From a virus (taxonomy: Duplodnaviria > Heunggongvirae > Uroviricota > Caudoviricetes): a stretch of DNA of 10,768 nucleotides. The notes under the pieces were generated by a model. It did not search any database. It worked only from the letters and a program-made list of their open reading frames with translations, and was not told the origin of the DNA. The stretch lies in IMG/VR virus record IMGVR_UViG_2671180279_000005, one strand, 5' to 3'. This document shows, piece after piece, positions 1-10,768 of this stretch (position 1 is its first letter; every line of letters starts with the position of its first letter). Position numbers and translations under genes: made by a program.

Positions 1-276
1 GTGGCTTCTGTTTCTATCAGCTGTCCCTCCTGTTCAGCTACTGACGGGGTGGTGCGTAACGGCAAAAGCACTGCCGGACATCAGCGCTATCTCTGCTCTC
101 ACTGCCGTAAAACATGGCAACTACAGTTCACTTACACCGCCTCTCAGCCCGGTACGCACCAGAAAATCATTGATATGGCCATGAATGGCGTTGGATGCCG
201 GGCAACCGCCCGCATTATGGGCGTTGGCCTCAACACGATTTTCCGCCATTTAAAAAACTCAGGCCGCAGTCGGTAA
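1..276 (+). CDS. insA: IS1 InsA (transposition inhibitor / N-terminal part of transposase), GTG start
   Basis: 91-aa [43 protein letters not shown]... with a C4 zinc-finger-like CxxC...CxxC and HTH region characteristic of IS1 InsA. Confidence 0.9.
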
Positions 277-698
277 CCTCGCGCATACAGCCGGGCAGTG
301 ACGTCATCGTCTGCGCGGAAATGGACGAACAGTGGGGATACGTCGGTGCTAAATCGCGCCAGCGCTGGCTGTTTTACGCGTATGACAGGATACGGAGGAC
401 AGTTGTGGCGCACGTTTTCGGTGAACGCACTCTGGCCACACTGGAGCGTCTTCTGAGCCTGCTGTCGGCCTTTGACGTGGTGATATGGATGACGGATGGC
501 TGGCCGCTGTATGAATCCCGCCTGAAGGGAAAGCTGCACGTAATCAGCAAGCGTTACACTCAGCGCATTGAGCGACATAATCTGAATCTGAGACAACATC
601 TGGCAAGGCTGGGACGGAAGTCACTGTCGTTCTCAAAATCGGTGGAGCTGCATGACAAAGTCATCGGGCATTATCTGAACATAAAACACTATCAGTAA
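195..698 (+). CDS. insB: IS1 InsB reading frame; expressed as InsAB' transposase by programmed -1 frameshift at the A6C motif (252-258)
   Basis: 167-aa frame overlapping the insA 3' end in the -1 frame; slippery AAAAAAC at 252-258; sequence ...[21 protein letters not shown]... typical of IS1 InsB. The M at 195 is an ORF-track start, not necessarily an independent initiation site. Confidence 0.85.
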
Positions 699-713
699 GT
701 TGGAGTCATTACC

Positions 714-1257: not shown

Positions 1258-1620
1258 ATGGCTAGCGAACGCAGTACTGATGTGCAGGCATTTATCGGGG
1301 AGCTGGACGGCGGCGTATTTGAAACCAAAATCGGCGCAGTTCTCAGTGAAGTCGCTTCCGGTGTGATGAACACGAAAACCAAAGGTAAGGTCTCGCTCAA
1401 CCTGGAAATCGAACCGTTTGATGAGAACCGAGTGAAAATCAAACACAAACTCTCATATGTTCGCCCGACTAACCGCGGGAAAATTTCCGAAGAAGACACC
1501 ACCGAAACGCCGATGTATGTCAATCGCGGTGGTCGCCTGACTATTCTGCAGGAAGACCAGGGACAGTTACTGACTCTTGCCGGTGAACCTGACGGAAAAC
1601 TCCGCGCAGCAGGTCGTTAA
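1258..1620 (+). CDS. yfdP: Prophage protein of unknown function, YfdP-like (120 aa)
   Basis: ATG at 1258 with GAGGAG Shine-Dalgarno 8 nt upstream (the ORF-track start at 1240 lacks an RBS); 120 aa; first gene of a P-Q-R-S-T series whose sizes (120/274/178/120/101 aa) and order match the E. coli CPS-53 (KpLE1) yfdP-yfdT genes as I recall them. Symbol assigned from that operon context, not from sequence-level recognition. Confidence 0.6.
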   Translation: MASERSTDVQAFIGELDGGVFETKIGAVLSEVASGVMNTKTKGKVSLNLEIEPFDENRVKIKHKLSYVRPTNRGKISEEDTTETPMYVNRGGRLTILQEDQGQLLTLAGEPDGKLRAAGR

Positions 1621-1685
1621 TATCGTTTTTAATTAACTGATTATTTATCTCATCACTGAATATCTTTATATAGTGAGGACTTATT

Positions 1686-2510
1686 ATGTCTCAGAACTTA
1701 GACGCAACCGCAATTAATCAAATCCATGCCCTTATTTCTGCTCAGGGTGTTAATGAAATTATCAGTAAGATTGGTGCCGATGCTGTGGCATTGCCTGAGA
1801 ATTTCCGCATTCATGATCTGGAAAAATTTAATTTAAATCGCTTCCGTTTCCGTGGTGCGCTTTCCACTGCCAGCATCGATGACTTTACCCGTTATTCTAA
1901 AGATCTTGCAGATGAAGGCACCCGCTGCTTTATCGATGCTGATAATATGCGTGCCGTCAGTGTGCTTAACCTGGGTACTATTGATGAACCAGGTCACGCA
2001 GATAACACCGCCACACTCAAACTGAAAAAGACAGCACCGTTCTCTGCTCTGTTGTCTGTTAACGGCGAGCGTAACTCCCAGAAGTCACTGGCAGAATGGA
2101 TTGAAGACTGGGCCGACTATCTTGTGGGCTTTGATGCTAATGGTGACGCTATTCAGGCAACAAAAGCGGCTGCGGCTGTCCGTAAAATCACGATTGAAGC
2201 AAACCAGACCGCTGATTTTGAAGATAATGACTTCAGCGGCAAACGCTCCCTGATGGAGTCTGTCGAAGCGAAGACCAAAGACATTATGCCAGTGGCATTT
2301 GAATTTAAATGCGTTCCGTTTGAAGGTCTGAAAGAACGTCCGTTTAAATTACGCCTCAGTATTATCACTGGCGATCGTCCTGTACTGGTTCTACGCATTA
2401 TTCAGCTGGAGGCGGTGCAGGAAGAAATGGCTAACGAATTTCGTGATCTGCTTGTTGAGAAATTCAAGGACAGCAAAGTAGAAACCTTTATTGGTACTTT
2501 CACCGCCTGA
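1686..2510 (+). CDS. yfdQ: Prophage protein YfdQ-like (DUF2303 family), 274 aa
   Basis: ATG at 1686 with GAGGA Shine-Dalgarno 7 nt upstream; 274-aa ORF; size and operon position match yfdQ. Followed by an intrinsic terminator. Confidence 0.65.
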
Positions 2511-2524
2511 TTTCATTACTGCAA

Positions 2525-2546
2525 ATGCCCCTGCGGGGGCATTTAT
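2525..2546 (+). terminator. Rho-independent terminator after the yfdQ-like gene: 7-bp GC-rich stem ATGCCCC / GGGGCAT, 4-nt loop TGCG, then TTTAT
   Basis: aaATGCCCCtgcgGGGGCATtta at 2523-2545, 15 nt after the stop codon at 2508-2510. Confidence 0.6.
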
Positions 2547-2637
2547 GGAAACGTAATTTACTCAATAATCGCCGGATGGTGAGGGATTCTTTTTACCAGA
2601 ATTCAGCGCGGTGCAGCGCATATACGTGGAGAACAAA

Positions 2638-3174
2638 ATGTCATTTATTAAAACTTTTTCCGGGAAGCATTTTTATTATGACAGGATAAATAAAGACGAC
2701 ATCGATATTAACGATATCGCGGTTTCCCTTTCAAATATCTGTCGCTTTGCCGGTCATCTTTCGCACTTCTACAGCGTCGCCCAACATGCGGTTCTTTGCA
2801 GCCAGCTGGTGCCGCAGGAATTTGCTTTTGAAGCGTTAATGCATGATGCAACAGAAGCGTATTGCCAGGACATTCCCGCACCACTGAAACGCCTTCTTCC
2901 TGACTATAAACAAATGGAAGAAAAAATAGACGCCGTAATCCGTGAGAAATACGGGTTACCCCCAGTTATGAGTACGCCCGTGAAATATGCCGATCTCATC
3001 ATGCTGGCAACCGAACGCCGCGATCTCGGGCTTGATGATGGCTCTTTCTGGCCTGTACTGGAAGGTATCCCGGCAACAGAGATGTTCAACGTGATTCCAC
3101 TGGCTCCGGGCCATGCCTACGGGATGTTTATGGAACGCTTTAACGAGTTATCGGAGTTACGCAAATGCGCATGA
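2638..3174 (+). CDS. yfdR: HD-domain phosphohydrolase (5'-deoxynucleotidase-like), YfdR-like, 178 aa
   Basis: ATG at 2638 preceded by GGAGAA Shine-Dalgarno (preferred over the ORF-track ATG at 2611); HD-domain signature residues in ...SVAQHAVLC... and ...LMHDATEAY...; 178 aa, the size of YfdR. Confidence 0.7.
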   Translation: MSFIKTFSGKHFYYDRINKDDIDINDIAVSLSNICRFAGHLSHFYSVAQHAVLCSQLVPQEFAFEALMHDATEAYCQDIPAPLKRLLPDYKQMEEKIDAVIREKYGLPPVMSTPVKYADLIMLATERRDLGLDDGSFWPVLEGIPATEMFNVIPLAPGHAYGMFMERFNELSELRKCA

Positions 3175-3527
3175 ATGTTTTCGAAATGGAAGGGTTTCTT
3201 CGTGGGAGATGTGTACCGCGAGATCTGAAAGTAAATGAAACAGATGCTGAATACCTAGTGCGTAAATTCGATGCGCTTGAAGCTAAATGTGCAGCACAGG
3301 AAAACAAAGTAATACCAGTGTCAACTGAACTGCCACCAGCAAATGAAAGTGTTTTGTTATTCGATGCTAACGGAGAAGGCTGGCTAATTGGCTGGCGTTC
3401 TCTCTGGTACACCTGGGGACAAAAAGAAACCGGAGAATGGCAGTGGACATTTCAGGTCGGGGACCTTGAAAACGTCAATATCACTCTCTGGGCAGTAATG
3501 CCAAAAGCACCGGAGGCTGGAGCATAA
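3165..3527 (+). CDS. yfdS: Prophage protein YfdS-like (DUF551-like), 120 aa
   Basis: Start ATG at 3165 (or in-frame ATG 3171 forming an ATGA overlap with the yfdR stop at 3172-3174); 120 aa; translationally coupled within the operon. Confidence 0.6.
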   Translation: MRMNVFEMEGFLRGRCVPRDLKVNETDAEYLVRKFDALEAKCAAQENKVIPVSTELPPANESVLLFDANGEGWLIGWRSLWYTWGQKETGEWQWTFQVGDLENVNITLWAVMPKAPEAGA

Positions 3528-3832
3528 TGACCACTTTTACCGACAAAGAACTGATTAAAGAAATTAAAGAGCGTATCAGCAGCCTTGACGTGCGAGACGA
3601 TATTGAGCGCCGTGCTTATGAAATCGCACTCCTATCTCTGGAAGTAGAACCAGATGAACGCGAAGCTTATGAATTATTCATGGAAAAGCGTTTCGGTGAC
3701 TTAGTAGATCGTCGGAGAGCAAAAAACGGCGATAACGAATACATGGCATGGGATATGACTCTCGGTTGGATCGTCTGGCAGCAACGAGCTGGTATCCATT
3801 TTTCAACAATGTCACAGCAAGAGGTGAAATAA
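3527..3832 (+). CDS. yfdT: Prophage protein YfdT-like, 101 aa
   Basis: TAATG overlap with the upstream stop (3525-3527); GGAGG Shine-Dalgarno upstream; 101 aa. Confidence 0.6.
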   Translation: MTTFTDKELIKEIKERISSLDVRDDIERRAYEIALLSLEVEPDEREAYELFMEKRFGDLVDRRRAKNGDNEYMAWDMTLGWIVWQQRAGIHFSTMSQQEVK

Positions 3833-4182
3833 TGGAGCCATACAGCCTCACACTCGATGAGGCCTGTCATTTTCTCAAGATATCCAGACCGACTGCCATT
3901 AACTGGATACGCACAGGGCGTCTTCAGGCAACACGCAAAGATCCCACTAAGAATAAATCTCCTTACCTCACAACACGACAAGCCTGCATTGCGGCTCTTC
4001 AGTCTCCGCTGCATACTGTCCAGGTGAGCGCGGGTGATGGCATAACAGAGGAAAGAAAATGTCACTCTTCCGCAGAGGTGAAATATGGTACGCCAGTTTC
4101 ACATTGCCGAACGGTAAAAGATTTAAACAGTCTCTTGGAACAAAGGACAAAAGGCAGGCGACAGAACTCCATGACAAGCTAA
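3832..4182 (+). CDS. xis: Excisionase / recombination directionality factor-like HTH protein (Xis); the 3' end as drawn overlaps int by 124 nt in another frame, so the true C-terminus is uncertain
   Basis: ATG at 3832 in a TAATG overlap with the yfdT stop, GAGGTG Shine-Dalgarno; N-terminal segment [28 protein letters not shown] resembles the winged-HTH of AlpA/Xis-type excisionases; located immediately upstream of the integrase gene as in lambdoid phages. Confidence 0.55.
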
Positions 4183-5222
4183 AGGCTGAAGCATGGCGGG
4201 TCAGCAAACTTGGTGAAATACCTGATATAACGTTCGAGGAAGCGTGTGTCAGGTGGCTTGAAGAGAAAGCACATAAAAAATCACTGGACGATGATAAAAG
4301 CCGGATCGGATTCTGGCTTCAACATTTCGCAGGAATGCAACTAAGAGACATTACTGAATCAAAAATTTATTCAGCAATGCAGAAAATGACGAACCGGCGT
4401 CATGAGGAAAACTGGAAACTCAGGGCAGAAGCATGCAGAAAAAAAGGGAAACCTGTTCCAGAATACACGCCAAAACCAGCGTCCGTTGCAACGAAGGCTA
4501 CGCATCTTTCATTTATAAAGGCCCTACTAAGAGCCGCAGAGCGTGAATGGAAAATGCTGGATAAGGCACCAATTATTAAAGTGCCCCAACCAAAGAATAA
4601 ACGGATCCGCTGGCTGGAGCCCCATGAAGCACAAAGGCTGATTGATGAATGTCCGGAGCCATTAAAGTCTGTTGTTGAATTTGCACTGGCAACAGGCCTA
4701 AGACGCTCGAACATCATCAACCTTGAATGGCAACAAATAGATATGCAGCGCCGGGTGGCATGGATAAACCCGGAAGAGAGTAAATCAAACCGCGCAATTG
4801 GCGTTGCGCTGAATGATACTGCATGTCGCGTATTGAAAAAACAAATCGGGAATCATCACCGTTGGGTATTTGTGTACAAGGAAAGCTGTACCAAACCAGA
4901 CGGAACGAAAGCGCCAACAGTCAGGAAGATGCGGTATGACGCAAACACAGCCTGGAAAGCGGCGCTGAGACGGGCTGGTATTGATGATTTCAGATTTCAC
5001 GACTTGAGACACACCTGGGCAAGTTGGCTGGTTCAAGCCGGAGTCCCGTTGTCAGTGTTACAGGAAATGGGAGGCTGGGAGTCTATCGAAATGGTTCGTC
5101 GATATGCTCACCTTGCACCTAATCACCTTACCGAACACGCACGGCAAATAGACTCGATCCTGAACCCATCGGTCCCAAATTTGTCCCAGTCAAAAAATAA
5201 GGAAGGTACTAATGATGTGTAA
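4059..5222 (+). CDS. int: Lambdoid-prophage tyrosine integrase (DLP12 IntD / phage 21-type), 387 aa
   Basis: N-terminus [28 protein letters not shown] typical of this integrase family; C-terminal catalytic region with [10 protein letters not shown] and MVRRYAHL (Tyr nucleophile); stop at 5220-5222, 15 bp from the tRNA-derived att core. Confidence 0.9.
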
Positions 5223-5236
5223 CTTATTGATTTAAA

Positions 5237-5282
5237 TGGTGCCGATAATAGGAGTCGAACCTACGACCTTCGCATTACGAAT
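5237..5282 (-). other. 46-nt copy of the 3' end of tRNA-Thr(CGU) (thrW-type), anticodon loop through CCA; interpreted as a phage/island attachment-site core (att junction), not a functional tRNA gene
   Basis: Minus-strand sequence ATTCGTAATGCGAAGGTCGTAGGTTCGACTCCTATTATCGGCACCA matches the anticodon-loop-to-CCA portion of E. coli tRNA-Thr (thrW) as I recall it; the upstream minus-strand sequence (GGAAAGTGATATTTTTGG) does not continue into the D-arm or acceptor stem. Confidence 0.75.
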
Positions 5283-5377
5283 CCAAAAATATCACTTTCC
5301 ACAATGTTTCATCGACTTCCATTTCATCACATAAAAACAATATATATCAATAAATTAAGACAAAAACACCTTTCACG

Positions 5378-5406
5378 TTGTTTCATGCCATTTCGCCTTA
5401 TACAAT
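5378..5406 (+). promoter_or_regulatory. Putative sigma70 promoter for the P4-type integrase: -35 TTGTTT (5378-5383), 17-bp spacer, -10 TACAAT (5401-5406)
   Basis: Hexamer match and spacing only; 40 bp upstream of the int start codon; overlaps repeated motifs (see findings). Confidence 0.3.
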
Positions 5407-5446
5407 GCTAAACAAGTACGCCAAAAAGTACGCGGGATGAGAAAAA

Positions 5447-6769
5447 ATGGCAACAGTGATAACTCAGGATCGACAGATAGCAAGCCTTGTTCCCCCTGTA
5501 GGAAAAAACCGGATTGTCGTCAGCGTCAAATCAAAAGCAGGTGCGGGGTTGTATATCGAATCCCGATCAGGGAGCCAAACAAAGAGTTGGCTCTACCGTC
5601 CCTACCTCAACGGCAAGCAGATAAAAATTACCCTGGGAGCTTATCCTGCAATGACGCTGGCCCAGGCTCGTGAAGCACATGCTGAAGCCATTGAGTTAGT
5701 GAAGCAGGGAATTGACCCCAGATACGTTCGTAAAACTGAAAAATCGAATAATGAGCAGATGCCCATATTTTCTGAATTGTGGGAAAACTGGTTGTCATTC
5801 AGAGAAACCAGCAAGCCAATAGGGGCTCGTACACTGGCTGATTATAAGGGAACGTATCGTCGCCATCTTGAGCAGGGGCTAGGCTCCGTGAGAGTGTGCG
5901 ATTTATCGCGTTCATATTTGTTTGCACACCTGAGCAAAGTCCGACAATCCAGCGCTGAAGGTGTGCGCAAAGGGCTTATCATCCTGAATATGACACTTGA
6001 CCATGCCACACTTCAGGGATTAATCGAGCTCAACCCTGCCCGTCTGTTAAAACCGGCGATGTTTGGTGCTTCCATGGCTAAACCGCGTGAGCGCTGGTTA
6101 TCGCAGGATGAGCTTCAACGGCTCTGGAAAACACTAGAAGAAGCTACTGCTGGTGGCGGTTCAGTTAGCACCGGTGGAAAAGGTATCGCTTCCAGTGTCG
6201 TTTTATCCCATGCGATAGCTAACACACTGAAGCTGATTATTCTGACCGGCGTTCGCCGCTCTGAAGCGGTTAAAATGCGCTGGGATCAAATCAACGGCGA
6301 TCGCTGGACAATACCGGAAACAAAGAATGGTAAAAGTCATGTAGTAACACTGCATCCGCTGGCACTGTCTATCCTGAAGAAACAGCGAATTATCTCCGAA
6401 GGCGCATTTGTCTTTGAGTCCACCAGCAACCAGGGATTCCCTATAACCGGAGACGCTGTCACACGAGCACTGGAGCGCCTGCGTAAAAAATATCTGGCAG
6501 AGCTGGAGCCATTTTCTCCCCATGATTTACGCCGCAGTGTCGCTACTGGTTGCGCTGAATATCTGGATGCCCCGGAGCGCCTGATTGAGCGATTGTTAAA
6601 CCACATTCCTAAAGACCGCCTGATCAGAACCTATCAGGTCGGGCAGCAGGCGGAAAAATTGCGTAGTTTGTTTTTGAGCTGGGGGGATTTTGTGGAGCGG
6701 TATGTAGCGCAGTCTGCCAGCCATGAGGTGACGGATAATGTTGTTCAGGTTAAGTTTGGCGGCAGATAA
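5447..6769 (+). CDS. P4-type tyrosine integrase (DUF4102-like N-terminal arm-binding domain plus phage-integrase catalytic domain), 440 aa
   Basis: N-terminal pattern ...GAGLYIESRSGSQTKSWLYRPYLNGKQIKITLGAYPAMTLAQAREAHAEAIELVKQGIDP typical of P4/CP4-type integrases; C-terminal HDLRRS...RLIRTYQ region consistent with the catalytic R-H-R-Y tetrad. Confidence 0.85.
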   Translation: MATVITQDRQIASLVPPVGKNRIVVSVKSKAGAGLYIESRSGSQTKSWLYRPYLNGKQIKITLGAYPAMTLAQAREAHAEAIELVKQGIDPRYVRKTEKSNNEQMPIFSELWENWLSFRETSKPIGARTLADYKGTYRRHLEQGLGSVRVCDLSRSYLFAHLSKVRQSSAEGVRKGLIILNMTLDHATLQGLIELNPARLLKPAMFGASMAKPRERWLSQDELQRLWKTLEEATAGGGSVSTGGKGIASSVVLSHAIANTLKLIILTGVRRSEAVKMRWDQINGDRWTIPETKNGKSHVVTLHPLALSILKKQRIISEGAFVFESTSNQGFPITGDAVTRALERLRKKYLAELEPFSPHDLRRSVATGCAEYLDAPERLIERLLNHIPKDRLIRTYQVGQQAEKLRSLFLSWGDFVERYVAQSASHEVTDNVVQVKFGGR

Positions 6770-6886
6770 CGTAATACTCGCTCTGATGGCGTTCAATGAA
6801 CAAAAAACTCTCATATCAGTCGGTCAACTCGATACTAATAGTGGGTATCAGCGATAGATTTCATGGTAAGAGTAAATGGGTAAATT

Positions 6887-6912
6887 AAAAGCAGTTACAG
6901 TGTACTGCTTTT
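6887..6912. terminator. Bidirectional intrinsic terminator between convergent genes: 9-bp stem AAAAGCAGT / ACTGCTTTT, 8-nt loop, A-run on one side and T-run on the other
   Basis: aaattAAAAGCAGTtacagtgtACTGCTTTTaattcatttt at 6882-6922; sits directly after the stop (6923-6921) of the minus-strand operon and about 120 bp after the plus-strand integrase stop. Confidence 0.6.
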
Positions 6913-6920
6913 AATTCATT

Positions 6921-7739
6921 TTACGGTTTACTTTGCTCGCTAATTTCCTGCAACTTCCAAAGTAAAGCCAACACGAGCCGAGGAGCACCTTTATATCCCT
7001 CGTAACCTTCATGTTCTGAGACAGAGCTCATCGCATCAAGTAGCCTGTAAGCTGGGCCATTTACATCAAATAACTGGTCCCCAATCCTTTTAACATCAAT
7101 AGTTACCAACCTACCACCGTCTTGCATCACCTGTGAAATTTCATGGAGAGCATCCGTCCAGTATGGTTGTCTCCCCCACCACTCGCCACGAGATTGACCA
7201 GCCTTCGTTATGGGAAGAGGAAAATGGGGATTACTTTGCGAAATGACGGATTTATTACCAATCCAATTGAAATTATCCTGACCTTCAACCCAGACTGGCA
7301 AAGTTGTTAAATTTTCCGGGAGCCCTTCCATCTCCTCCCAGCAAACGGTTGGGACCATGTCACCTTGCTCAAGAAAACCAATGAGTTCAGATAACCAACC
7401 AGCATACCCCCAGTCACGTCCCTTGCCAGTAAGGGCAATATCCGGAAAACGGGTGATAAATTTCTCTGCCAGGGTGCGAGCATCATTACCGTCAGTATCT
7501 GTCCAACTGAAATAGTGACCCGCACCAGTGATAGCGACTAAGGAGTCGGAAAGCTTGTCGGTCGGAATCGCAATACCATTGTCGGCAAAATAATCTCGCG
7601 GGGCGATTGCGAATCTGAACCCCTGTGCATTGAAGTAAGACATACCCCGCAGTTGTTGGTAGCCAAGACGATGTAGCTCTGAAAGCATCCGCAGGCATCG
7701 TTGCGCTTTACGTACCCATTCAAATTTCGACTTCATCAT
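6921..7739 (-). CDS. Hypothetical protein, about 272 aa, Trp-rich, no recognisable domain; second gene of a helicase operon
   Basis: Open frame on minus strand; preferred start ATG 7739-7737 (or 7736-7734) preceded by GCAGGAGAG Shine-Dalgarno and forming an ATGA overlap with the helicase stop codon TGA (7738-7736); the ORF-track start at 7763 would give 280 aa with a 28-nt overlap. No Walker A, HNH, Toprim or other catalytic signature detected by eye. Confidence 0.7.
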   Translation of the reverse strand: MMKSKFEWVRKAQRCLRMLSELHRLGYQQLRGMSYFNAQGFRFAIAPRDYFADNGIAIPTDKLSDSLVAITGAGHYFSWTDTDGNDARTLAEKFITRFPDIALTGKGRDWGYAGWLSELIGFLEQGDMVPTVCWEEMEGLPENLTTLPVWVEGQDNFNWIGNKSVISQSNPHFPLPITKAGQSRGEWWGRQPYWTDALHEISQVMQDGGRLVTIDVKRIGDQLFDVNGPAYRLLDAMSSVSEHEGYEGYKGAPRLVLALLWKLQEISEQSKP

Positions 7740-10700
7740 CTCTCCTGCATGATCGCTGTACATTGTTTTGCGGCATCGACTCTCCGCTCGTACTCCTCAA
7801 GTGTGATGTTCTCATAACAACAGTCAGCTTCGTCCCGGCGATAGCGATTGCAGCCATAGAAAACACCACCATCCTTATTTTTCCGCTTAAGCATTGTGCC
7901 AAGACCACAGCGTCGGCAGACAATTTCTATCTCCTGACATTCTGGGTTCGCGCATATTCTTTGCAAACCATTATGCATCACCATCGGAGAACTACATTGC
8001 TTGCAGGCACTAGCCATATAATCACAGGCAGGAGAGTGCGAGCAGACATAGAATTTTTTATCATAGCGACTCACTTTACCCGTTAAGCAGCCTGATTCAC
8101 AATCGGGGCAATGCCACTGACCGATTTCAAGAGAATCACTTTTAGTGATGAGCTGTTGACCCATTCTGGCAATCTCCTCAACAAACGCTGAGGTGTTTTG
8201 GCTATCAAAGATCATAAATACATAGTGCCGGGCGCGGGTAACGGCGACGTAAAACAAACGGCGCTCTTCGGCAAACAAATATGGCTCTTGCTCCGGGAGA
8301 AGAAGATCTATCAGTTCGTCATTTTCCTTTGCCGATGGAAAACACCCTTTCTCAAGACCAAGGAGTAGCACGTAATTCGCTTCCAGGCCTTTACTGGCAT
8401 GCGCGGTCTGGTATTGAATATCCAGCAGAGGAAATTCAGCCATTAGCGCCTGAACATCCATATCCTTAAGCTCTCGCATATTTTCCAGACGATAGCGGCC
8501 AATAAGCATTACTGGTGCCCGCCTGGTACTGTTGAGTCTCACTTCCCGACGATGACAACGAGTAAGCGCTCTCTTGATTTGCAGACGATAAGCTTCAGCC
8601 TTTCTTTGGTTGCGATCGGATAGGTCAATACCGTGCATTTGTTCCTGAATATCAAGCAGCTGTACTGCAGCATGCTCCACCTGTGAGAGCGTAGTAATCT
8701 CTTTCTTCAATTGTGCTGGATTACGGGTGACAAAGGCAGAGCTGAGTTCATGTATGCGATTATTAAAACGATAACTCTTGTCAAGAGGCAACATTTTCGC
8801 TGGCGAAAATTGATGATCAAAGCGGGTAAAAAATCTTAGATCAGACCCGTTAAAACGATAAATGGCTTGCCAATCATCTCCTACCGCAAATAACCGCATA
8901 TTATCCCGGGTTGCCAGTAATGCTTTTAACAACTTGCCTCGTCCACCGGAAAGATCCTGGAATTCATCAACCAGTACGTAGTCATATCGGTGATGAAATT
9001 GTCCCTCCTGAAGCGCTGTTGTTGCTTCCGCGATCATATCGCTGAAGTCCATCTCGCGCTGCTCTTTAAGGTGAGCTTCATAGGCATCGTATACTGGTTT
9101 GAATAATTCGATAAATGCCTGAGTACGCCCCATGTCTATTCGTTGAGGGGATGCCAGGAGGTCTGAAAAAGAAAATTGCCCTTCTTTGAAAAGCCCAAGA
9201 AAGCGGAGCATCAGATCGATAAATCCTTGCCACGGCGATGAACTGGAGTTTTTAAGTTCATCCAGAAGCGTATCAGTATCACGCAAATGCTGTGGTTCAC
9301 TTACCCGATTAAGTATATCGAGTAAATTATTCTCAAGTATTCCTTCGGCTAGCTGATAGCTATATAACTCTTCCAGTCGGGTATTATGTTGTTGATGCAA
9401 CTTCCGCTTCCAGGCGACTCCTTCAAGGTATGCAGCCTGATTAACAAAAGGGGCCGTTCTCATTTGCCGATCCACGCCCAGGTATTCAATATAGGTCTTG
9501 CTTCTCGGCAGGTAAAAATCAGGTTTATACTGGCGGCGCTCAATCGTTGCTGTATTTACCTCATAATTCGCTTCGTATTCGAATGGAACAGAATACAAAT
9601 ATAAATAGTTGGCAACTCTCAACTCCCCCACACTCTTTACCCACTGCCCCGTCAGCGTAATCAGGCGACAACTTTGCAGAAACTCATGATATTCTTCAAT
9701 AGCATTGAAGTCATATTCACAACGTCCTGGCGTGCTATAACAAACAAAATATTTAACTAGTTGAGTTTTATAATCATCGTTGACACTTATTTCTGACTCT
9801 AATTTCGCCTCAATAAAATGGCGCAGTTCATTATTTTGCTCTGCAAAACGTGTAAGAGAACGCTTGACGCCTACACTTTCAGCAACGACACGGTTTCCAA
9901 AAGCATGAAAGGTCGTTGCTTTTAGCTTGCCGCCACTTTCTGGCAATCGTTCTGTGATACGCTCAGCCATTTCCCGTGCTGCTTTATTCCCGAAAGCCAG
10001 CATTAATATATTTTCAGGCTGAGCTAAACCTGCTTGCAATAAATACCCTGCTTTACCAATTAATGTCGACGTTTTTCCGGTACCCGCACCAGCAACGACC
10101 AAAGTATGATCTTCATTGGTAACACAGGCTTTACGCTGAGGGGCACTAAGCGGTTGAGATTCGATCTGTTCAAAGAAAGTCTGATAAGCTGACAATAACT
10201 GTGGGATAACTTTCTCGTTGAAGTGGCTCCTGGCAGATTCTGAAACATCGTCCATGGATAACTTCAGCGCCAGTTGTGCTATGGGGTTATTACCTTCATG
10301 AGCAATAAAATCTGCATCAATCGCAAGATCCAGCAATCGTTTCTTTACCTGCATTAACTGTGACAAAGATCGCCATTCCCACGAAGAAAAATAGTGTCCC
10401 CCTTTTTGATAACGTTTTACTAGCTCCAGCAATTCCCTCCACTCATTGCTGTGCTGGAAAATATCTAAAGCTGTACATTGGATTTTTTTGATAAGCGTTT
10501 CCAGCTGTTGCAGATTGAAACCATTTAATTGATATATCTTACTCTCCAAACCAATAACAATCTCAGAGTACAACCATTTTTTATTTATTTTAACATTTTT
10601 AATATCACCGATGGGCAATTGCACACTCACCCCATGATGGATGAAAGTCAATTGGCCTGGAGACAATAATATTTTATTAGCACGTCGACGCCAAATACCC

Positions 10701-10768
10701 CACAGATCGTAAAGCGGATGCGTGCTGAGGTTATGTTCACATTGCAACTGTGGAGTTAATTTTTTCAT
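7736..10768 (-). CDS. Helicase IV (HelD)-like UvrD/Rep-family SF1 helicase, 1010 aa, with an internal PD-(D/E)xK / Vsr-DUF559-like nuclease-like insert and three C-terminal topoisomerase-type C4 zinc ribbons
   Basis: Walker A GAGTGKTS (aa 227-234, nt 10067-10090); motif II LVDEFQD (aa 599-605, nt 8954-8968); FAVGDDWQAIYRFNGSD, KSYRFN, TAHASKGLEANYVLLLG and YVAVTRAR motifs collinear with E. coli helicase IV as recalled; insert GELRVANYLYLYSVPFEYE...YKPDFYLPRSKTYIEYLGVD (aa 378-432); Zn ribbons CPDC...CSHSPAC, CKQC...CANPEC, CRRC...GCNRY...C (aa 887-985, nt 7814-8110). Start codon is the last 3 nt of the window, so an upstream in-frame start cannot be excluded. Confidence 0.85.
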   Translation of the reverse strand: MKKLTPQLQCEHNLSTHPLYDLWGIWRRRANKILLSPGQLTFIHHGVSVQLPIGDIKNVKINKKWLYSEIVIGLESKIYQLNGFNLQQLETLIKKIQCTALDIFQHSNEWRELLELVKRYQKGGHYFSSWEWRSLSQLMQVKKRLLDLAIDADFIAHEGNNPIAQLALKLSMDDVSESARSHFNEKVIPQLLSAYQTFFEQIESQPLSAPQRKACVTNEDHTLVVAGAGTGKTSTLIGKAGYLLQAGLAQPENILMLAFGNKAAREMAERITERLPESGGKLKATTFHAFGNRVVAESVGVKRSLTRFAEQNNELRHFIEAKLESEISVNDDYKTQLVKYFVCYSTPGRCEYDFNAIEEYHEFLQSCRLITLTGQWVKSVGELRVANYLYLYSVPFEYEANYEVNTATIERRQYKPDFYLPRSKTYIEYLGVDRQMRTAPFVNQAAYLEGVAWKRKLHQQHNTRLEELYSYQLAEGILENNLLDILNRVSEPQHLRDTDTLLDELKNSSSSPWQGFIDLMLRFLGLFKEGQFSFSDLLASPQRIDMGRTQAFIELFKPVYDAYEAHLKEQREMDFSDMIAEATTALQEGQFHHRYDYVLVDEFQDLSGGRGKLLKALLATRDNMRLFAVGDDWQAIYRFNGSDLRFFTRFDHQFSPAKMLPLDKSYRFNNRIHELSSAFVTRNPAQLKKEITTLSQVEHAAVQLLDIQEQMHGIDLSDRNQRKAEAYRLQIKRALTRCHRREVRLNSTRRAPVMLIGRYRLENMRELKDMDVQALMAEFPLLDIQYQTAHASKGLEANYVLLLGLEKGCFPSAKENDELIDLLLPEQEPYLFAEERRLFYVAVTRARHYVFMIFDSQNTSAFVEEIARMGQQLITKSDSLEIGQWHCPDCESGCLTGKVSRYDKKFYVCSHSPACDYMASACKQCSSPMVMHNGLQRICANPECQEIEIVCRRCGLGTMLKRKNKDGGVFYGCNRYRRDEADCCYENITLEEYERRVDAAKQCTAIMQER

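Follow-up and report, generated by a model that had tools for sequence, protein, structure and literature searches.

The tRNA gene thrW, which encodes tRNA-Thr(CGU), is listed as an integration hotspot in E. coli (PMC7545054). In Shigella flexneri, tandem integration of the phages SfI and SfX at this gene was shown experimentally (PMC3306764). Panis et al. (2010) distinguished four shapes of integrase-tRNA pairs, among them OC, with thrW-intH as an example, and OD, with ptwF-intF as an example; the OD and SIT shapes together account for less than 8% of 1273 pairs, and autorepression of intF was shown in the same study (PMC2951348). Here we analyse a stretch of 10,768 nucleotides from the virus record IMGVR_UViG_2671180279_000005 of IMG/VR, called the window in the following, in which two different integrase genes (int1 and int2) enclose a 46-nt copy of the 3' part of thrW. 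We propose, with a probability of about 0.9, that the window is the internal junction of two independent integrative elements which occupy thrW in tandem, a prophage with int1 and a defence island with int2. The literature on thrW and on defence hotspots yielded nothing specific to this island.

On the plus strand, positions 5237-5282 read TGGTGCCGATAATAGGAGTCGAACCTACGACCTTCGCATTACGAAT; reverse-complemented, they equal nt 31-76 of E. coli thrW without a mismatch, from the anticodon loop to the CCA. This 46-nt core occurs only once within the window, and no match to it was found in shuffled sequence (0 of 200). The int1 gene converges on the CCA end of the fragment, with its stop codon 14 nt short of it (OC geometry), and at the other end a gap of 164 nt separates the fragment from the start of int2, whose transcription leads away from it (OD geometry). 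A preliminary description of the window had given the coordinates and distances of the fragment and both genes correctly to within one base, and had described a lone thrW 3' copy between a lambdoid and a P4-type integrase; the exact match to thrW and the domain assignments (for Int2, PF13356 with E 9e-17 and PF00589 with E 7e-18) bear this out.

The identity to other elements changes over exactly at this fragment. The DNA from 3500 to 5282 is 98.9-99.7% identical to the int-xis-attP module of the phages SfIV, SfV and SfII (99.7% from 3500 onward for SfIV) and ~80% identical to that of P22. All phage matches break off precisely where the core ends, at 5282, and the sequence from 5283 onward is unrelated to the phage attP. 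E. coli E24377A and many other strains match the window at 100% identity over the part that begins with the core and continues to the right. Since the phage identity stops where the core ends and the island identity starts at the core, the fragment represents a hybrid site, and as judged from these breakpoints the attR side of the island is joined here to the attL side of the prophage.

This reading draws on the anatomy of the sequence and on arrays that are present in related genomes. Among complete E. coli genomes, the int1-core-int2 junction was found at 99.4-99.7% identity in six records from five strains. Strain TW10722 (junction identity 99.7%) carries the complete array, in the order proA, intact thrW, a 28-kb island, the 46-nt core, a 38.5-kb SfV-like prophage, the 46-nt core again, yagP' and paoD. 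Counting the intact thrW, this strain holds three copies of the core, the middle one flanked by int2 and int1. The intact thrW is joined to the P' arm of the island, and the far core to ~125 bp nearly identical to the P arm of SfIV, followed by the chromosomal yagP' flank. In the genomes with the same junction, intact thrW stands beside proA ~25-28 kb to the right, at 25.2 kb in CP157243 (E. coli 2024CK-00535). The tandem occupancy of one tRNA site suggested by the preliminary description is thus supported by the breakpoints at the core as well as by the array of TW10722, and the intact thrW and additional cores for which it had proposed to search are present in close relatives (both in TW10722, thrW in CP157243).

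It had also proposed a comparison with an unoccupied locus, and such loci are common. The empty proA-thrW-yagP' site, rebuilt from two K-12 halves, was found in 948 of 5426 complete E. coli genomes (at least 80% coverage, identity up to 100%), and a shorter query with the trailer allele of E24377A found it in 1579. The site is unoccupied in 17-29% of complete genomes, depending on the query, and the genomes without a contiguous proA-thrW-yagP' most likely carry an element inserted there.

Each of the two elements also occurs in other contexts. In E24377A the island stands alone between intact thrW and the same 46-nt fragment beside yagP', with int2 in the same position. At an identity of at least 99%, int2 is present in about 34-36 of the 5426 genomes, and around one third of the island carriers (12 of ~34) hold a prophage with an SfV-type int in tandem. 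The reverse array, in which the island P' arm, the core and the phage P arm follow each other, was first predicted and then searched for, and was found in six other genomes at 99.2-99.7% identity. An example is 101EVA (CP138393, locus 8890-47502) with the order proA, thrW, int1 and an SfV-like prophage, core, island, core and yagP'; its distal core at yagP' was deduced from a genome match that begins at position 5219 of the window. Both orders are therefore equally frequent, with six records for the order of the window and six genomes for the reverse. The prophage bodies next to the island differ, CP157243 having lambda-like siphovirus structural genes, and TW10722 and SL124 SfV-like myovirus genes.

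Several points weigh against a tandem array. The window itself holds one copy of the core and no intact thrW, and the array is reconstructed from near-identical genomes. No genome of the collection spans the whole window, the best one covering 93% of it, owing to a copy of the insertion sequence (IS) IS1 at the left end. Given this IS1 at 1-713, the prophage in the genome of the window may be truncated or defective. In CP157243 and SL124, IS elements have rearranged the far prophage end, and a third full core was not found there. Finally, the activity of Int2 and the use of the fragment itself as attB are predictions from sequence.

For the origin of the array we propose that both integrases would recombine within the 3' part of thrW, of which each attP would carry a copy. 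A first integration would rebuild an intact thrW on the proA side and shift the 46-nt 3' copy, still a complete core, to the far end of the element. A second integration into either copy would then lead to the order thrW, element 1, core, element 2, core, yagP'. The element nearer to thrW would be the defence island of ~25-28 kb with Int2 at its far end (element 1); its attP would comprise a pair of arm repeats, the core, a second pair of arm repeats and int, with the tRNA segment reading away from int2. Element 2 would be a lambdoid prophage with the int-xis-attP module of the SfIV/SfV/SfII (P22) type, in which int1 adjoins the core. The 46-nt fragment would consequently be bordered by the P arm of the island on one side and the P' arm of the phage on the other. 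Each element could excise separately with its own integrase and its own directionality factor, Xis for the phage and an AlpA-family protein, annotated at the island end opposite int2, for the island. Recombination by both enzymes and binding of the arm sites are inferred, as is the order of arrival.

On the phage side the closest described systems are the Sf phages (SfI, SfII, SfIV, SfV, SfX) and P22. They share with the window Int1 (348 of 387 residues, i.e. 90% over the full length, are identical to P22 Int), the overlap of xis and int, and an identical 46-bp core 14 nt past int. In the SfI record the same 46 bp are annotated as attP core 14 nt past the int stop codon, and the 23-bp core annotated in the P22-pbi record falls inside the 46 nt. 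In contrast to these phages, the core of the window is joined to an island arm, and neither to the phage P arm nor to the 5' half of thrW, and related prophages have mosaic bodies that are lambda-like in some cases and SfV-like in others. The TW10722 prophage showed no gtr O-antigen genes at its far end, unlike serotype-converting phages. In the SfI and SfX lysogens, two phages that use the same thrW core follow each other head to tail, with proA on one side, the downstream chromosome on the other and an att copy at each junction (PMC3306764). However, both of these phages have one type of integrase, whereas in the window one partner is a defence island with an unrelated P4-like integrase and opposite polarity.

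On the island side the window resembles CP4-6 of K-12, where intact thrW is followed by an island, a distal intF that lies on the opposite strand and diverges from ptwF, and yagP'. The repeat ptwF has 49 nt compared to 46 nt here, and the cargo of CP4-6 consists of toxin-antitoxin and metabolic genes, while the island carries Zorya, a type I restriction-modification system and a helicase. Int2 is 23% identical to K-12 IntF (E 6e-18), which rules it out as an IntF orthologue, and 25% identical to P4 Int over 416 aa (E 2e-20). Phage P4, which integrates at leuX, has its core ~150 bp upstream of int and paired arm repeats with a 12-bp period on both sides, one of them just before the ATG, as found here. 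In P4, however, the tRNA segment reads towards int, which stands beside the intact tRNA gene, whereas in the island it reads away from int2, which stands at the distal fragment.

The STI geometry, with the tRNA gene followed by int on the same strand, does not apply to int2, which belongs to the rarer OD class, and in the window a single fragment forms an OC pair with int1 and an OD pair with int2. The preliminary description had taken the orientation of int2 to mean that the P4-type element may use a different att or have been rearranged. This was not supported: E24377A with the island alone and K-12 CP4-6 have the same geometry, and both island ends share arm repeats arranged as in P4, so that the geometry is no sign of a rearrangement or of another att site. 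The divergent position of int2 is native to the island element.

The arm repeats were recognised after the island attP had been rebuilt from both ends. Each arm carries TAAACAAGTACGCCA-NN-AAGTACGCG, in which AAGTACGC is repeated in tandem; in the window this octamer stands at 5414-5421 and 5426-5433 with a period of 12 bp. In TW10722 the second copy of the arm block lies at the island end next to thrW, at a distance of 57-82 nt from the core. The 9- to 11-mers common to both arms were equalled in 0 of 300 shuffles, and we regard the repeats as putative binding sites of Int2. The arm upstream of int2 contains a second repeat, CACAATGTTTCATCG at 5305-5312 and CACGTTGTTTCATGC at 5379-5386, which could be a candidate site for another protein. 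A match to the SAM_alpha riboswitch at 5367-5445 reached 17.8 bits against a gathering score of 36 and was taken as chance, and a consensus scan of 5100-5500 found neither a promoter (including sigma-70) nor a terminator. The coordinates of all features are collected in Table 1.

Table 1. Features along the 10,768-nt window
Feature	Position	Strand	Remarks
IS1 copy	1-713	+	truncated by the left edge of the window, which coincides with the insA start codon
Early-left genes yfdP, yfdQ, yfdR, yfdS-like, yfdT	1258-3832	+	reading towards xis and int
xis (excisionase)	3832-4182	+	HTH_17; overlaps the start of int1
Int1, P22/SfV-type tyrosine integrase	4059-5222	+	387 aa; Phage_integrase, E 3e-48
thrW trailer, 17 nt	5220-5236	-	TAACTTATTGATTTAAA on the + strand; from alignments and the table of att sites
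46-nt att core	5237-5282	-	exact match to thrW nt 31-76
Island P arm, int2 upstream region	5283-5446	+	identical in E24377A
Putative arm-type Int2 sites	5409-5435	+	TAAACAAGTACGCCA-AA-AAGTACGCGG; 14-33 nt upstream of the int2 ATG
Int2, P4-like tyrosine integrase	5447-6769	+	440 aa; Arm-DNA-bind_3 and Phage_integrase
280-aa protein gene	6921-7763	-	first island cargo; no family match
1010-aa UvrD/helicase IV-like protein gene	7736-10768	-	28-nt overlap with the 280-aa gene

As arrays in both orders exist, two histories have to be weighed for the order of arrival. On the first, which we hold tentatively and at somewhat less than an even chance, the island came first and an SfV-type phage then entered the displaced 46-nt fragment, i.e. 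the island attR acting as a pseudo-attB, instead of the intact thrW. The island is 99.6-100% identical across genomes and usually stands alone (~34-36 genomes with int2, six with this junction), and the neighbouring prophage bodies, lambda-like in some and SfV-like in others, suggest separate phage arrivals. Moreover, no part of the 46-bp core is missing from the fragment, and the 23-bp core of the P22 annotation falls within it. However, in the sole experimental case the incoming SfI took attL, the copy with the intact thrW, of an SfX lysogen (PMC3306764), and the distal prophages look older and decayed by IS elements, while the proximal prophage of 101EVA looks intact.

The second history, not quite an even bet either, starts from a lysogen whose intact thrW was later entered by the island, displacing the prophage and its core outward. 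It follows the rule of the SfI/SfX experiment, in which the newcomer is found in the intact proA-proximal copy (PMC3306764), and the pattern of decay fits, with IS damage in distal prophages and an intact proximal prophage in 101EVA. The equal frequency of the two orders (six and six) also agrees with it. On the other hand, the island would have had to arrive independently in several different lysogens, and it is probably less mobile than a phage, as no transfer or packaging genes are annotated in it (CP157243, E24377A, TW10722).

An extension of these histories, which we consider unlikely, is that the island attP, due to its inverted polarity, always leaves a competent 46-nt pseudo-attB on its outer side, that SfV/P22-type phages choose freely between the two cores, and that induction of the prophage could mobilise the island. 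If this were true, a free choice between the fragment and intact thrW would explain the equal frequency of both orders. Defence island and prophage would then be physically coupled, and aberrant excision or lateral or specialised transduction would be the vehicle for an island that has no transfer genes of its own.

The two integrases could alternatively belong to a single composite element, for example a P4-type satellite that travels with its helper phage. The integrase genes are just 224 bp apart, P4-like integrases are typical of phage satellites, and Int2 and P4 Int agree in length (439-440 aa) and domain layout. Yet the island occurs alone in E24377A and in most carriers, the int1 module is found in free phage genomes, the elements also occur in reverse order, and a copy of the core stands between them. 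In addition, the annotated island genes of E24377A, TW10722 and CP157243 include none of the P4 genes for replication and helper exploitation (alpha primase, sid, psu, delta, epsilon), unlike the P4 record; this negative is limited to the annotation, no profile search having covered all the genes of the island. We regard the composite element as very improbable, and it is largely refuted by the independent occurrence of each part. Even less credible is that the junction arose from a misjoined assembly or from homologous recombination of thrW-like repeats at dispersed sites: the core and its 17-nt trailer are long enough to mislead short-read assemblers, but the same junction recurs at 99.4-99.7% identity in six complete-genome records from five strains, and the breakpoints fall exactly at the boundaries of the att core with arms as predicted by site-specific integration.

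The 17-nt trailer, which contains the int1 stop codon, is common to every att site at the thrW locus, its alleles differing at three positions, so that the block shared by these sites really comprises ~63 nt. Trailer alleles of the K-12 type and of the E24377A type were both found in unoccupied chromosomal sites, and the allele of the window likewise occurs in such sites at 100% identity. In genomes with the island only, allele b stands beside yagP', whereas K-12 has allele c, and an odd crossover or a past occupancy by a phage was considered for this. Since allele b is also present, at 100% identity, in empty sites, it is a chromosomal polymorphism, which mostly resolves the puzzle. The order of arrival cannot be read from the trailer alleles.

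The 46-nt fragment is no functional tRNA. ARAGORN reports an 80-nt tRNA-Thr(CGU) at 5237-5316, which is composed of the core and 34 nt of island sequence. A scan with Rfam found no tRNA at the gathering score and hence no complete cloverleaf, and the best match in a permissive scan was tRNA-Sec with 16.4 bits and an E value of about 1. The match to thrW is limited to 46 of its 76 nt, and 1938 of 5000 shuffles scored equally well against thrW as the putative 5' part. A full-length tRNA, whether intact or decayed, was ruled out by the Rfam scans together with the comparison of the 5' part, and the call is a false extension of the displaced core. Displaced 46-nt cores called in this way are likely a source of false tRNA annotations at att sites.

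Further to the left the window contains the early region of the prophage. The xis open reading frame (ORF) matches the excisionase domain TIGR01764 with 25.8 bits, below the cut-off of 28.8, and xis is annotated at the equivalent position in SfI, SfV and P22. The names of the early-left genes were taken from the RefSeq annotation of the 99.6% identical stretch of CP157243 and agree with PHROG matches. IS1 breaks this region ~3.3 kb upstream of int1. Two ORFs, of 91 aa and 167 aa, identify it by their similarity to IS1 InsA/InsB and to a PHROG transposase family (E 2e-78). Its terminal inverted repeat extends to ~713, and prophage relatives begin to match at 714 or at 854-858. The presence of IS1 explains the thousands of matches that the whole window gives in E. 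coli genomes.

Right of int2 the first cargo of the island begins. The 280-aa protein has no match in Pfam, NCBIfam, PHROGs, PADLOC or the PDB sequences. The best PADLOC matches of the 1010-aa protein are the DRT 'RTasHel' and GajB models, while its first ~200 residues lie outside every family match. In relatives this pair is located between int2 and a type I restriction-modification system together with a type I Zorya system, and the two-gene operon is a candidate for an uncharacterised defence pair. The island genes of TW10722 comprise an AlpA-like regulator, a YagK-like gene, type I Zorya, type I restriction-modification, the helicase pair and int2.

CP157243 carries a further CP4-like island between the prophage and yagP', with a CbtA/YeeU toxin-antitoxin system, Ag43 and type I restriction-modification. 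At its yagP' end, only 16-17 nt of the thrW 3' end are left, with one nucleotide deleted (locus 32396-32412), which suggests that the integrase of this third element uses a much shorter core. The junction between the prophage and the CP4-like island was erased by IS903B and ISKpn26.

A decayed counterpart of the junction is present in GI-thrW of the ST131 strain EC958 and its relatives, with a 144-nt 3' stub of a P22-type int, 45 of the 46 core positions and a divergent int2-like gene, and with AbiE and a type I restriction-modification system as defence cargo. In contrast to the window, GI-thrW reaches an identity of only ~82-83%, has lost the prophage body and retains both integrases as pseudogenes. 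This junction occurs in ~288 complete genomes, for example in ST131 strain H105 (locus 6015-7704), where the int2-like gene has an internal stop.

The window is the seam between a prophage of the Shigella phage type and an anti-phage defence island at thrW, a known arrangement at a known hotspot. This changes little for biology at large and confirms the textbook behaviour of tRNA-targeting integrases. New are the delimited att site and the likely arm sites of this island, and the existence of both array orders. With these, the thrW island with type I Zorya of E24377A-like strains now has defined ends, a defined integrase and likely arm sites, and the locus may serve as a natural system for the question of which of two identical cores an incoming phage uses.

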